From a virus (taxonomy: Duplodnaviria; Heunggongvirae; Uroviricota; Caudoviricetes): DNA of 64,000 nt. Positions 4,657 to 9,754 of this stretch are shown in pieces. Made by a program: the position numbers and the translations under genes. The number at the start of each line of letters is the position of its first letter. Positions within the stretch are counted from its first letter, which is position 1. The notes below the pieces were generated by a model. It was given only the letters and a program-made list of their open reading frames with translations, was not told where the DNA came from and searched no databases. The DNA is taken from positions 2,217 to 66,216 of IMG/VR virus record IMGVR_UViG_2778261457_000003; one strand, 5' to 3'.

Positions 4657-5658
4657 TTAAGGCTTCGGCTTTTTATCGAGGCTCTTTCTAAGGATATGCC
4701 CAATCATCCTGTCGAGTTCTTCCTGTAGCTCTTTTGAAAGTCGATTAAACTCATAAGAAAATGCACGGCCTTTCACGCGCTTCCTTGCAAAGCGATCCTT
4801 GTCCTCAAATTTCCATAATTCAGTAACTACGGACTTATCTTTAGAACCTTTATCCGTGAGTAGTGAGGCTTCCTTTGTTATCAAGCGCAGGATTTTATTT
4901 TTAACTTCATCTTCGGCCATTTCTTCAATGGATAAGATGTCGTTTATTTCCGGGGATATGTTTTGAATAAGCTGATCAAACTCTAAATTCTTGTTCCCCA
5001 TTTCGTCGCCAACAGCACAAAGCGTTTTGTAGTCCGAAAAGGTTAATTCCGACTGCACAGGGAAAAGGGCGACTAATTCTTCCGGAGCACTCGCTGCCTG
5101 GAGAGCACGCGTGACCTTCGCCTGAGACAGCCCTTCTTTGGCTGCAATATCCTTCTGACTCATCCCATCATTTTTCATTCGCATCAAACGCAGACCTATT
5201 TCTCGAATGCTGTGCTGCAATGCTGTCTGAACGTCTTTCGCTAAATTTTGCGCTTCCTGAACGCTGATCTCCTGGTCCGTGACTAAAACCCGCAACCCCA
5301 CGTTCTCTAAGATGGCAGAAGCTCGACGCCGGGAACCATCCAAAATTTCAATTTTCCCTGTAGCCCGTCTAACACCTATTGCAGGGTAAAATTGCTGATG
5401 CTTAATAGTGCTTCGGATACTTTTTAATGATTTTGGCGTAAGAGATGCCTGGTCACGCCCGTTGTTATGCTGATCAACAAAGGTATCGCTTTCTACCTGG
5501 TTCGGAGGAATTACCTCCTCGATAAATGTGGCCTGGCGACCAGTTGATAACTTGAATACCTGCTCGACTCGATCGCCAGAGGCTGAAGAACTATCAAATC
5601 CGCTTAATATTGAAGGATTAAGGGTTCGCCCAATTGTTGGTCTGTTTTTCTTTGACAT
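4657..5658 (-). CDS. parB: ParB partition protein (P1 type)
   Basis: 333-aa ORF beginning MSKKNRPTIGRTLNPSILSG, downstream of parA and upstream of parS. Confidence 0.9.
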   Translation of the reverse strand: MSKKNRPTIGRTLNPSILSGFDSSSASGDRVEQVFKLSTGRQATFIEEVIPPNQVESDTFVDQHNNGRDQASLTPKSLKSIRSTIKHQQFYPAIGVRRATGKIEILDGSRRRASAILENVGLRVLVTDQEISVQEAQNLAKDVQTALQHSIREIGLRLMRMKNDGMSQKDIAAKEGLSQAKVTRALQAASAPEELVALFPVQSELTFSDYKTLCAVGDEMGNKNLEFDQLIQNISPEINDILSIEEMAEDEVKNKILRLITKEASLLTDKGSKDKSVVTELWKFEDKDRFARKRVKGRAFSYEFNRLSKELQEELDRMIGHILRKSLDKKPKP

Positions 5659-5674
5659 GGGGGTTTCTTACTCC

Positions 5675-6871
5675 TCAGTTAGATCTGATAAATTCAATAC
5701 GGTCAAACACTGCTTTTGCAAAATCTTCCGCAGCAATTCGCGCGTTCTTCAATGCATCAGCACTACCAACATACGTTGCCGGGTTAGCTGAAATAACAGT
5801 GTCAAAAGACTCGCCGCAGCGTTCAAAACCGTCAAGGCGAGGGAGGACGACATCGAGCATATCCCCACCGAACACTTCTTTAGCCAGGCTATGGCAATAC
5901 TTATGGTCTGCCTTGTTACTCAACTTGGACATAAAACCAATGTTAGTCGCAAGCTGGCACTCGCAGCCTTCATCCGAAATGAGTTTCACCAACTCAGGAA
6001 GGCGGGCAACGTATTTAAGCGATGAGTGGAAATCAACCGTTGCAGGCGGCAGAGGTGTAAACAGTATATTGGCCGAGGCCAAAGCATTTTTCAGGAAGGC
6101 GTCAAGGTGAGGACCACTATCAACGAGGATAAAGTCATAATCGCTCTTCAGCTTATCAATCACATTTTCTTTCAGGACTGCATGGATGTTCTGACCCGGT
6201 AGATGCTCATTGCACAGCTCTCTCCAATCGGATGCAATAAAGGCATCGTCAATCGACGCAGGCATAACGTCAACCCCAGGTACAACAGAAGGAACAATAA
6301 ACTCCTCTAACAGCTCTTCACGGCTTACATTCTGCAACATAGCCTGTGCAGATGTTGCGTTTACGATACCAATAGAGTGTTTATGGCTTAAAAACATCGT
6401 TGCTGAAGATTGCGGATCAAGGTCAATAACCAGAATCCTTAAATCTTCCATCAGAAGATGAGGATGAGCACGCATTGCATGCGCCAGAGAAACCGTCGAT
6501 ACAGTTTTTGACACACCGCCTTTAAGATTGGAGATGAAAATCACATACGCTTCGCTGTAGCGATCCCGGTATTTTGGCACTCCGCGATGTTCATATATGT
6601 CAATGATGTTCTGAATTGACATCGCATATTTCATTGAAGAGCCAGCAGGGCGTTTATCGAAAACATAACCCTTTTCTTCCATTTCACTTACGGCATAGTC
6701 AACGTTCGCACGAGTCAGTAGAGGCAATTTTGCCAGTGCCGCTTTCGCATAGACCTGGTAAAACTCGTTCGCGTGTAGCTCATCCTTTTGCAACTGTACT
6801 TGTTCAGTCAGAACATTGAGCATTCTATTTGCTCTTTGAGCAACCTTGTGAAGCTGGCTGGAATCACTCAT
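5675..6871 (-). CDS. parA: ParA partition ATPase (type Ia, with N-terminal DNA-binding extension)
   Basis: 398-aa ORF with deviant Walker A (KGGVSKT) and DLDPQ motifs, immediately upstream of parB. Confidence 0.9.
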   Translation of the reverse strand: MSDSSQLHKVAQRANRMLNVLTEQVQLQKDELHANEFYQVYAKAALAKLPLLTRANVDYAVSEMEEKGYVFDKRPAGSSMKYAMSIQNIIDIYEHRGVPKYRDRYSEAYVIFISNLKGGVSKTVSTVSLAHAMRAHPHLLMEDLRILVIDLDPQSSATMFLSHKHSIGIVNATSAQAMLQNVSREELLEEFIVPSVVPGVDVMPASIDDAFIASDWRELCNEHLPGQNIHAVLKENVIDKLKSDYDFILVDSGPHLDAFLKNALASANILFTPLPPATVDFHSSLKYVARLPELVKLISDEGCECQLATNIGFMSKLSNKADHKYCHSLAKEVFGGDMLDVVLPRLDGFERCGESFDTVISANPATYVGSADALKNARIAAEDFAKAVFDRIEFIRSN

Positions 6872-6889
6872 CGAAAGTCATCCTTTATG

Positions 6890-6965
6890 CTGTATTTTTG
6901 AATTTAATTAAAAATGCTGCATAAAATAATAATGTATGCGTAGATGCTTGTACATAGCATTCTCT
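6890..6965 (-). promoter_or_regulatory. parAB promoter/operator region containing imperfect palindrome atgcttgtacatagcat
   Basis: AT-rich region directly upstream of the parA start, with a palindrome centred near 6952. Confidence 0.35.
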
Positions 6966-7010
6966 GCATGTTTGGTTCATTTTGCACGATTGAGAGTTAC
7001 AAGGAGGGCA

Positions 7011-7033
7011 CAAAAAAGCCCCGTTCAGGGGCA
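7011..7033 (-). terminator. rho-independent terminator (gcccctgaacggggc + T-run on minus strand)
   Basis: GC hairpin followed by TTTTTT, directly after the stop of the 269-aa ORF. Confidence 0.55.
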
Positions 7034-7039
7034 TCAGTG

Positions 7040-7849
7040 TTATTTGCTAAGAGCAGCGAATAATCGTTCGAAATCGATAGTATCTATAGCACGCGTAAGC
7101 GCCGGAAGTTCAGCCTCAAAGTACCCGTGTCGATCGTAAAAGAAGGGACCGAAGAGCGAGGCATGTTGGATTCTACTTCGCCCCAGCCCGGACACACAGT
7201 TAAGCCCATTACCGGCTAAAAGGCTAAAAAACTTCTCTGGATTATCGTGGTAAAGCTGGGAATCAATGGTGGCGGTTAACTCTTCCATAGGGAAGCACAC
7301 CCGCCCTGTATCCCAGGGATATTTAGTCCGAAGCATAAACATTGCTTTCAGCAATTCACATTGAGCGCGGATCGCGTCCGGTTCATAGCCAGATATGGAG
7401 ACATAAGCCACGTCCCTCATTCCTGCGTCATCTTTGAAAGTCACGATAGAAGTAACATCCAGCTCTTTTTCGAAAGAGCAAGCAGCATCTACTGGACGCT
7501 GAAGTAAATCATTCGACTTAATGCGCTCGAGAATCCCTCCCCACATATCATTTAGATATTCGATATGAGCCAAAACCTTATCAAGACACTCTCGTGTAAA
7601 CCATTCAGTATGCCCGCCACCGACGCTTTTCTCCCACGGCGCATTCCAGGGGAAAAAGGTTGCGTGTAAAGCCCGCTCAAGATTAACCATTACCAAACGC
7701 GTACCACGATAGACCCGTGAAAGCGCAAAATCGGGACTCACTTGTAGCCCTTTAAACCGTGCCAATGGACCACATGAAATGCCGATTTTAAAAGTATCTC
7801 CGTTCTCTGGCACCAGAACGTAGAGGTAGTGTTGTTTCTCTTCTTGCAT
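7040..7849 (-). CDS. T5orf172 / GIY-YIG-like domain protein with uncharacterised C-terminal domain
   Basis: N-terminal motifs HYLYVLVPENGDTFKIGIS ... RFKGL ... GGGHTEWF match the T5orf172 signature; gene lies between incA iterons and the parA promoter and has its own terminator. Confidence 0.65.
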   Translation of the reverse strand: MQEEKQHYLYVLVPENGDTFKIGISCGPLARFKGLQVSPDFALSRVYRGTRLVMVNLERALHATFFPWNAPWEKSVGGGHTEWFTRECLDKVLAHIEYLNDMWGGILERIKSNDLLQRPVDAACSFEKELDVTSIVTFKDDAGMRDVAYVSISGYEPDAIRAQCELLKAMFMLRTKYPWDTGRVCFPMEELTATIDSQLYHDNPEKFFSLLAGNGLNCVSGLGRSRIQHASLFGPFFYDRHGYFEAELPALTRAIDTIDFERLFAALSK

Positions 7850-7864
7850 ATCAATACCACTGCT

Positions 7865-8140
7865 TGATGAGAACCGCGCAAATGTTGACTATGCGCGAAG
7901 GTTAATGTGAATAGTTGACTATGCGCGATGTGACTACAGTCAAAAGTTGACTGTAGTCGATTTAACTCCACCAAAGATCGACTATGTAAGATATTGTCGG
8001 GAGAAACGTTGACTATACGCGATGAAATGCCCCTAAAAGCCATCTCAATAGCGACTTGCAGAATATTGACGCCAGCAAAAATCCACCAGCGTCAACGAAT
8101 GTCGCCTATAGTCAACTTCTCGCTATCGCATATAGTCAAT
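7865..8140. repeat. incA: incA-type iteron array (about nine copies of a ~15-bp TTGACTATRCGCGA-like core in both orientations)
   Basis: repeated ttgactatgcgcga / ttgactgtagtcga / tcgcctatagtcaac units immediately downstream of repA. Confidence 0.7.
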
Positions 8141-8141
8141 A

Positions 8142-9062
8142 TTATGGATTGCGCTTATGGATCTGGAAGCCGATTTTCCTGCCGTTTTTTATCTCTGAAA
8201 ATTTAAGATATTCAATAGCTTCCAAATCTTTCATGGCTTTTCTGATAACGCTATTTTGCACGCTAACGGATGATTTGAGATTAAGCCTCGCTCTAAGGCG
8301 CTCAATGCTGACAGGTGCCGGGTTGGCGGGTAGAGCCTCAAAGAATGTATACAGTACCTTGGCCGTCTCTTTGCGCCCTAGTTTATCCAGCATCTTCAGC
8401 TTCAGGATTCGCTTATAGTCAACATAGTAAAGTTCAGATAGCTGTTTCTGCGGCTGGATCTCGATAACATCAAGCTCGGTATTCAGGCTGCTATATGCCA
8501 ACAAGTTGACGTTAATGTTATTGAGATGACCTTTTGCCGCCGGGAAGCGGAATTTGACAACTGTCTGCTGAATGCGTGTCAGAGAGTCATCAATACTTTT
8601 ACGGAACGCCTTTGAAAGGCGCTTACGTGGATAGCCGCATCGATCGGCAAACTCGGAGAATGGCAGGGTGATTATGCCGTCATCATCAGGTGCGTAGTCA
8701 AACAACGCGGAGGTTATGCCCACCCACACCTTAAAATCAGTATCCATATCCAGGCGTGGACCATGAATTTCAATTCCCTCATAGCCTTCCTGCTCAACAA
8801 TTTTGAGGCTTGATAGTTCTTCAGTTGCGTTCGTTGTGTTTGTTGTAACTGACGATCCGCGACGTAGCGCCACATTGGTAGATTTTAAGGTTGGCACAAA
8901 CACACCTAAGCGCAACAAAGCGATGGGTTGTATAGTGCTGTTGTTATTGGGCTTCAGGCTGTGGATTTCTCCTGTATTTCCTGCAACTTCTTCAACGCTA
9001 AGGAAGCCTTTACTTTCTTCCGGCATCACGGTTTCTCCATGTGTGGCGCGGCCTGACGTCAA
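8142..9062 (-). CDS. repA: RepA replication initiator (iteron-binding, P1/RepFIB family); probable true start at 9026
   Basis: motifs NNNSTIQPIALLRLGVFVPTLKS, GPRLDMDTDFKVWVGI, ALYTFFEALPANPAPVSIERLRARLNLKS characteristic of this initiator family; flanked by iterons on both sides. Confidence 0.85.
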   Translation of the reverse strand: MTSGRATHGETVMPEESKGFLSVEEVAGNTGEIHSLKPNNNSTIQPIALLRLGVFVPTLKSTNVALRRGSSVTTNTTNATEELSSLKIVEQEGYEGIEIHGPRLDMDTDFKVWVGITSALFDYAPDDDGIITLPFSEFADRCGYPRKRLSKAFRKSIDDSLTRIQQTVVKFRFPAAKGHLNNINVNLLAYSSLNTELDVIEIQPQKQLSELYYVDYKRILKLKMLDKLGRKETAKVLYTFFEALPANPAPVSIERLRARLNLKSSVSVQNSVIRKAMKDLEAIEYLKFSEIKNGRKIGFQIHKRNP

Positions 9063-9079
9063 TTTGGATGGCTGTTATC

Positions 9080-9320
9080 AACAGCTGTGAATATTCAGAC
9101 TCTAAAATCGCTTACAGTCAATGTTTCTGTCGCGTATAGTCAACAATAAATCGCGTGCAGTCAACAATAAATCGTGCACAGTCAACATAAAATCGCGTAT
9201 AGTCAATGTTGATCCCATTTCAGGCCAGTAATGACGCGGCTTACAGCGATCCGGGATCTTCTTTGGATCTTCCTAGGTTCTCTTTAGGATCTGTTTATTG
9301 GATCTATGCTGTGGATAAGT
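9080..9320. other. oriR: oriR replication origin: iterons at ~22-bp spacing, five GATC-containing heptamers, DnaA box TGTGGATAA
   Basis: gtcaac-type repeats at 9100-9200, GATC cluster at 9240-9300, DnaA box at 9310-9318, all upstream of repA. Confidence 0.75.
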
Positions 9321-9361
9321 TGAATAAACCGGCCAACAAAGCCGGTTGGAAGGAAGTCATA

Positions 9362-9754
9362 TTATTCTACGCTTTCGATAAGAAGACCATGTTCATAACA
9401 TTTAAGCTCATCGCCTTCGTACAGGAATTGGTATCCAATACCACCATTTTCATGGACATTAGGGAATAACTCATAACTCACTGAAGAGCAAATCACACCA
9501 ATGCAACGATCAACGCCTTCTCGTTCTTCAGTGCTGAAAAAATCCTCTTCGGTAAGAACATGAGTACATTGCTCATCAGCATAGGTCGGAAATACATGCT
9601 CGATGCAATCCGGGTGTTTTAAACCAAGCTGATCGGCAAGCTCGAAAGCATGACGGTATTGTTCAGATCCTGGCTTGCCAACAGTGATGTGCTCAATTTT
9701 GTAGATTGAAGTCGCTTTGTTGATAGTTTGCTTTACTGTTACTTTATCAGACAT
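9362..9754 (-). CDS. hypothetical protein
   Basis: 130-aa ORF, no recognisable motif. Confidence 0.4.
   Translation of the reverse strand: MSDKVTVKQTINKATSIYKIEHITVGKPGSEQYRHAFELADQLGLKHPDCIEHVFPTYADEQCTHVLTEEDFFSTEEREGVDRCIGVICSSVSYELFPNVHENGGIGYQFLYEGDELKCYEHGLLIESVE

Follow-up and report, generated by a model that had tools for sequence, protein, structure and literature searches.

P1-like phage-plasmids, frequent vehicles of ESBL and mcr resistance genes in E. coli and Salmonella, fall into two replicon types that serve for typing, IncY and p0111. The 64,000-nucleotide stretch of virus record IMGVR_UViG_2778261457_000003 analyzed here (the window) is such a phage-plasmid, of the SJ46/RCS47/JL22 type. 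Its maintenance region raises a specific question: how did a gene for a T5orf172-domain protein come to lie between the iterons downstream of repA and the promoter of the partition genes, and what could its product do there? The first-pass annotation had pictured this gene as wedged into the maintenance module of P1 itself, between incA and the parA promoter.

The T5orf172-domain protein and the signals around its gene

The gene is a minus-strand reading frame at 7040-7849 that encodes 269 amino acids followed by a stop codon, with its ATG at 7849 in the program-made ORF list. The N-terminal part of the product (residues 8-85; 7595-7828, minus strand) matches the Pfam T5orf172 nuclease domain of the GIY-YIG superfamily (PF10544) with 26.5 bits (E=9.5e-6) against a gathering cutoff of 20 bits, and aligns to positions 2-87 of the 101 in the profile; the match to the related Pfam model MUG113 is below threshold. 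At full length the protein matches PHROG 2876, a family of unknown function (E=6e-194), while residues 4-100 match PHROG 681, labelled 'endonuclease' (E=4.8e-9), which lends independent support to the domain assignment. The signature blocks from which the first-pass annotation had recognized this domain are found at residues 8-12 (YLYVL), 21-25 (KIGIS) and 79-84 (GHTEWF), and the Pfam and PHROG 681 matches bear out its call. All three blocks are kept in a homologue with 44% identity, P0004. The residues Y8/Y10, K21-I-G23, R31 and E82 (in TEWF) are invariant in P0004 and in all 24 sampled variants of the protein; going by the GIY-YIG and T5orf172 literature (PMC8263062), they are the candidate catalytic positions. 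Genes 99-100% identical to that of the window occur in ~400 plasmids; across hundreds of these, RefSeq labels the product 'GIY-YIG nuclease family protein'. None of the 5027 models of PADLOC-DB v2 matches the protein at E<=1, and searches of NCBIfam and of PDB sequences gave no match either; a known defence family was rejected on the PADLOC and NCBIfam results. The gene shows no GC anomaly (45-49% GC, like its flanks).

The C-terminal ~170 residues, said in the first-pass annotation to match nothing recognizable, are indeed an orphan: an exhaustive phmmer search with this half against 1.84 billion representative proteins recovered P0004 as the one true homologue, plus fragments, and P0004 was likewise the sole true homologue in a search of 5.8 billion clusters. 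A full-length AF2 model of the protein, built with only two distinct sequences as input, is poor (mean pLDDT 52). Its nuclease half is too poor for confirming a GIY-YIG fold, a Foldseek comparison of the model with the PDB gave nothing below E=0.6, and the full-length model was left out of the evidence. The best-modelled C-terminal stretch (residues ~157-220; 7190-7381, minus strand) consists of a helix, a strand, three helices and a strand; with this weak winged-helix-like fold it is possibly a winged-helix DNA-binding module. Neither BLASTP nor hhalign detected similarity between the C-terminal half and the RepA of P1 or of the window's own replicon, and on these comparisons we rejected a chimera like the ICP1 nuclease Odn, with a DNA-binding half derived from RepA.

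Directly past the stop codon the minus strand carries an intrinsic-terminator-like hairpin, GCCCC-TGAAC-GGGGC followed by TTTTTT (7032->7018, within a feature at 7009-7032, found by terminator scan and in the sequence); this is the gene's own terminator, as the first-pass annotation had it. Behind repA it is the first such signal: along the minus strand from the repA stop codon to the ATG of the T5orf172 gene, the scan gave no terminator-like site. The interval between the iterons and this ATG has no sigma-70-like promoter or P1 late promoter, either in a promoter scan or in a reading by eye, which found no AAGTGACTT -22 box; a promoter of its own of either kind was accordingly rejected. The Shine-Dalgarno sequence is weak. 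The simplest reading of these signals is that the gene would be co-transcribed with repA at a low level. Rfam models gave no hit at E<=1 in a search of 6500-9500 for structured RNA. Just past the terminator lies Ppar (6926-6954, minus strand), identified by promoter scan, P1 annotation and alignment and 100% identical to that of P1. It is followed by P1-type parA (5675-6871, minus strand; ORF list, Pfam and comparison with P1; 98.8% nucleotide identity to P1) and, beyond that, by parB (4657-5658).

The replicon cassette and its junctions with P1

The gene starts right after the last iteron, as had been noted, with the iterons beginning 30 bp upstream of its ATG. These are, however, not the P1 incA iterons that the first-pass annotation took them for: the RepA that goes with them is another one, with only 42% identity to that of P1, and their consensus, GTTGACTATNCGCGA, is unrelated to the P1 iterons. 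In a repeat search the downstream ('incA-like') array spans 7880-8140 and comprises five iterons of GTTGACTATGCGCGA type in the same orientation (7880-8022, ~31-bp spacing) and two in the opposite orientation (8100-8140). It is preceded in the direction of transcription by a p0111/RepFIB-like repA (8142-9026, minus strand; 294 residues from its ATG), which has the Pfam Rep3_N and Rep3_C domains and is annotated as repA in RCS47 and SJ46. A further four to five iterons with 21-bp spacing lie upstream of repA, at the origin (9105-9207; repeat search). Hence the window has neither the P1-type RepA nor the 19-bp P1 iterons that define the P1 IncY replicon.

Two reading frames of this region call for a remark. 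The mechanically called repA frame (8142-9062) begins with a TTG and has 306 codons; relatives are annotated from the ATG at 9026, and the longer frame probably over-extends into the promoter and iteron region. A 101-residue frame on the minus strand (7738-8043) and residues 1-41 of P0004 read through the iteron array, giving repeated AYSQH/AHSQ peptides; both are non-coding artefacts of gene calling.

Alignment with P1 (NC_005856) locates the change of replicon precisely. Identity is 100% from parA through Ppar to position 6970 and then stops abruptly. This breakpoint is 16 bp past the Ppar -35 box; the terminator of the T5orf172 gene lies 48 bp away from it and the stop codon 70 bp. Nucleotide homology to P1 is absent between 6971 and ~9225. 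On the right, similarity returns weakly (~75-80%) in the GATC-rich, DnaA-box part of oriR from ~9225 and is high again at the upfA terminator. The GATC/DnaA-box half of the origin (9225-9335) is thus ~75-80% P1-like while the adjacent iterons are completely different, which sets the right-hand limit of the swapped replicon within oriR itself, where the origin iterons give way to the GATC/DnaA-box region. A block of ~2.3 kb (6971-9225) therefore stands where P1 has the 1.6 kb of incA-repA-incC. On these alignments, the T5orf172 gene and its terminator are the left end of a p0111-type replicon cassette, and the notion of a gene wedged into the P1 module gives way: the whole block of repA and iterons is of p0111 type. 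An insertion into the gap between incA and Ppar of P1 was rejected, since the entire replicon differs.

The two regions still share their order of origin iterons, repA, downstream control iterons and Ppar-parA-parB, with essentially identical parAB and Ppar and a ~75-80% similar GATC/DnaA-box part of oriR. They differ in RepA and in the sequence, spacing and orientation of the iterons, and the window has an 810-bp gene with a terminator where canonical P1, in line with the first-pass annotation, has incA and Ppar separated by nothing more than a 190-bp non-coding spacer. Neither this spacer nor that of IncY elements with a different par region has similarity to the gene (blastn at word size 7, and tblastx); on these results the IncY spacers were rejected as degraded remnants of it. 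A published account already describes this arrangement, in which repA (p0111) plus an unknown gene, gp57, take the place of repA (IncY) (PMC9603915).

Distribution, decay and selection

In PLSDB, 402 records encode the T5orf172 protein, all but one distant match at >90% identity, and 399 carry the window-type repA with its iterons. An identical parA/Ppar/T5orf172 junction is found in 399 records and is the single junction type; ~145 further records match the parA/Ppar part only, and in no record is the gene joined to a different partition system. The expectation that the gene is inherited with the maintenance core holds up in that gene, repA and junction occur together in ~400 PLSDB plasmids. 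About half of the P1-like phage-plasmids carry the p0111 module with the gene at its edge. Among IncY-type relatives no gene lies between incA and parA, in 143 full-length matches to the P1-type par region and in the two loci inspected from the class with a parA/Ppar region that does not match P1. The comparison of the incA-parA interval across P1-like elements that the first-pass annotation had proposed thus finds the gene in the p0111 type and not in the IncY type, so it is not universal. This amounts to a presence/absence polymorphism at one locus among near-identical genomes: ~400 P1-like elements have the gene at an identical junction, and IncY-type elements with the same parA/Ppar lack it.

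PLSDB holds three combinations of rep and par modules, and these differ in where homology to P1 is lost: in IncY elements with a non-P1 par exactly at incA iteron 1, and in p0111 elements 16 bp upstream of the Ppar -35 box. These breakpoints indicate that the ~170-bp P1 spacer (region 6313-6488 of the P1 locus) is specific to the combination of P1 par with IncY and marks a zone of recombination between rep and par.

Beyond this family, 38 RepFIB-like replicons of other Enterobacterales, with RepA 39-49% identical, have no homologue of the gene within 5 kb. The plasmid pNCYU-26-73-5 (CP042620.1) has a repA with 76% nucleotide identity and the same iterons and lacks the T5orf172 gene. The gene is therefore not a component of the replicon, and a general companion of RepFIB-like replicons was rejected on the same grounds. 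The pNCYU-26-73-5 repA locus (4830-5947) adjoins a phage tail gene and has no adjacent parAB; this plasmid appears to be a different phage-plasmid backbone that uses the same Rep/iteron family. The one homologue, P0004, is encoded on a diverged P1-like contig (RepA 84% and ParA 89% identical to those of the window) in the same position, in the order repA, iterons, gene, Ppar, parA. The gene was never seen outside the p0111-type cassette or moving without the replicon.

We sampled the window copy and 42 further full-length copies (41 IMG/VR loci and RCS47). The gene is intact in 35 of these 43 copies (81%) and inactivated in 8. There are three independent nonsense alleles: W68* (L043), S112* (L028, L029, L032, L033 and L034) and Q228*, the last in the reference genome of Salmonella phage SJ46 (4324-5133). 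One copy (L046, 6295-~7830) is broken after codon 98 by an IS200/IS605-family element with a TnpB of 389 residues on the opposite strand and a Y1 TnpA of 141 residues, with parA shifted by ~1.5 kb. Two database copies also look split. The piN/piS ratio of the gene is 0.30, as against 0.023 for repA, 0.002 for parA, 0.052 for parB and 0.16 for upfA. Intactness in most copies, this ratio and the intact syntenic homologue establish that the frame is a real gene.

Among 68 segregating sites there are ~35 variable amino-acid positions, spread across both halves (16 in residues 1-100 and 19 in residues 101-269). Nonsynonymous changes are far below the roughly 3:1 ratio to synonymous ones expected under neutrality, and the reading frame is intact in the diverged lineage; both indicate that the gene is still under selection. 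Relative to this diverged homologue, in a comparison in which synonymous sites are saturated, dN is 0.52 for the gene (0.30 for the N-terminal domain and 0.69 for the C-terminal half), 0.12 for repA and 0.07 for parA. At nonsynonymous sites the gene has thus evolved 4-7 times faster than RepA and ParA. On these sequence comparisons, the gene is dispensable for maintenance and fast-evolving, above all in its C-terminal half, yet retained by selection in the long term.

Allele identities within the cassette are incongruent: one locus (L041) has a repA 100% identical to that of the window and a T5orf172 gene 97.8% identical, while another (L008) has a gene 99.75% and a repA 98.5% identical (repA at ~4824-5708 and gene at 6001-6810 in these loci). 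At synonymous sites the gene is also less diverse (0.024) than repA (0.047). These differences indicate recombination within the cassette, across the iteron array.

A homing-endonuclease-like reading and its rivals

Our main reading, tentative at a probability of roughly 0.4, is that the gene is a free-standing selfish or competition nuclease, comparable to a homing endonuclease gene (HEG), at a boundary of genetic exchange. It is suggested by the combination of a T5orf172 domain with a variable, possibly DNA-binding second half, the site between essential genes, the presence/absence polymorphism, the recurrent stops and insertions and the position at the exchange boundary. Such instability and rapid evolution are typical of HEGs, and a nuclease with a weak winged-helix-like C-terminus would match the architecture of GIY-YIG homing enzymes and T5orf172 HEGs.

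The T4 Seg proteins and I-TevI, GIY-YIG homing endonucleases of about 220-270 residues, are similar in size to the window protein. They have an N-terminal catalytic domain, a linker and a C-terminal DNA-binding domain, and are intergenic and free-standing, with co-conversion of flanking markers as the predicted consequence. The window protein differs from them in belonging to the T5orf172 subfamily, with KIG for YIG, and in a C-terminal half without detectable similarity.

T5orf172 genes of phages, including ICP1, T5-like and other phages, have been described as putative HEGs with such signatures at boundaries of genetic exchange (Barth, Dunham and Seed 2023, PMC10448857); according to that paper, neither homing nor cleavage has been demonstrated for those of ICP1. 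The window gene resembles them in its Pfam nuclease domain, in pairing a nuclease at one end with a variable region, presumably for DNA binding, at the opposite end, in lying beside essential genes with variable presence among close relatives, in its frequent stops and disruptions, and in its position at a genetic-exchange boundary. Unlike them, it has the nuclease domain at the N-terminus, and its other half is an orphan without the CapR, DUF723 or DUF4397 Zn-finger modules present in 87% of those HEGs (PMC10448857); its host is a temperate phage-plasmid in which the neighbours are a plasmid replicon and partition genes rather than lytic-phage genes, and each genome has only one copy. Odn (ICP1 gp88), also a T5orf172 nuclease, is tied to conflicts over replicon modules, with iteron-type origins in both cases and the swapping of replicon modules as the evolutionary response (PMC8263062). 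Its domain order is reversed relative to the window protein, and its DNA-binding half is homologous to the RepA_N domain of its target (42% identity), whereas the C-terminal half of the window protein has no similarity to RepA.

If the gene is HEG-like, its product would be a two-part endonuclease, with an N-terminal T5orf172 catalytic domain and a rapidly evolving, probably DNA-binding C-terminal module, and the gene itself a passenger fixed at the left margin of the p0111 cassette, outside the replication and partition machinery. Low-level read-through from the autoregulated repA promoter would cross the downstream iterons and be ended by the gene's own terminator before Ppar. An IncY-type P1-like genome lacking the gene in the same cell would be cut near its Ppar/incA junction, while the enzyme's own genome would be spared, the target site being disrupted there. 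Repair homology would be limited to parA on one side and oriR/upfA on the other, and recombinational repair would then carry over the nuclease gene and, with it, the neighbouring repA and iterons; another possible outcome is plain loss of the rival IncY genome. We infer the nuclease activity, its target, the outcome in homing or exclusion and the mode of transcription. Such co-conversion would account for the 1:1 linkage of the gene to the entire p0111 replicon. Against homing, a single ancient recombination followed by vertical spread fits the ~400 copies equally well, for with only one junction type sequence data cannot separate repeated homing from one ancestral event. The gene has, moreover, not been seen apart from the replicon and has no promoter that we could find, so that its expression is putative.

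Rapid change and repeated loss are no less characteristic of defence genes, and this counts against the HEG-like reading. The first-pass annotation had suggested a factor in defence, anti-defence or plasmid competition; each may apply, and a HEG-like selfish nuclease suits the evolutionary pattern at least as well. A single-gene anti-phage or anti-plasmid defence, in which the C-terminal domain would sense or bind invading DNA and the nuclease degrade it to the protection of lysogen and element, is possible, if on the unlikely side. T5orf172 nucleases do act in conflicts between mobile elements, Odn cutting the origin of a satellite (PMC8263062), and the high piN/piS and the accessory position in a phage-plasmid, with expression, if any, in the plasmid state, would suit such a role. 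The empty PADLOC search speaks against it, as does the solitary setting of the gene between iterons and Ppar with no partner genes and no recognizable sensor-type domain; further, its distribution is extremely narrow, within one cassette, whereas defence genes usually move among contexts. A single junction in ~400 records is what one would expect of a decaying hitchhiker, captured once with the p0111 replicon, devoid of a current role and kept by tight linkage to repA. The 8 inactivated copies and the recent amino-acid polymorphism, even over both halves including the nuclease domain, point the same way. This explanation is nonetheless rather unlikely, given a piN/piS well below 1, the intact frame in 81% of copies, and the conservation of frame, motif residues and gene position in a lineage with saturated synonymous sites.

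Conserved position also bears on the idea of a domesticated accessory of the replicon, which would bind near the iterons or Ppar and modulate replication control, handcuffing or the insulation of rep from par, with or without nuclease activity. The place between downstream iterons and Ppar is kept in two diverged lineages, a winged-helix domain may be present, and CapR offers a precedent for a domesticated DNA-binding regulator derived from a HEG (PMC10448857). We nevertheless hold this very improbable: a close relative of this replicon, which has the same iterons, does without the gene, copies broken by nonsense mutations or an IS are maintained in phage-plasmids that are otherwise complete, the SJ46 reference included, the protein has no similarity to RepA, and its nonsynonymous evolution outpaces that of RepA and ParA. 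A bolder form of the competition idea, which we consider decidedly unlikely, is that the nuclease is a replicon-linked weapon among P1-like phage-plasmids that would cut the rival IncY genome at or near incA/oriR. P1-like rivals share a partition system and would hence not coexist stably, yet they differ in replicon; a cut would either do away with the IncY element or leave it with a p0111-type replicon.

The ORF and its annotation were public before, as was its joint replacement with repA. This analysis adds the strict linkage, the location at the boundary, figures for decay and for rapid evolution, a C-terminal half that is an orphan and may be a winged helix, and the HEG-type interpretation; our literature search found no paper linking homing endonucleases to replicon swapping in P1-like elements. 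If the gene is a passenger only, the finding is that the p0111 cassette carries a dispensable, often broken nuclease gene, not an insertion into the P1 module. A nuclease strictly linked to one replicon type at an exchange boundary offers a testable mechanism for module swaps or for the displacement of one type by another. Were it a weapon against IncY rivals, it would have driven, and would still maintain, the split of the P1 family into two replicon types at roughly 50:50, and would be a counterpart among plasmids to Odn or to a 'HEG island'.
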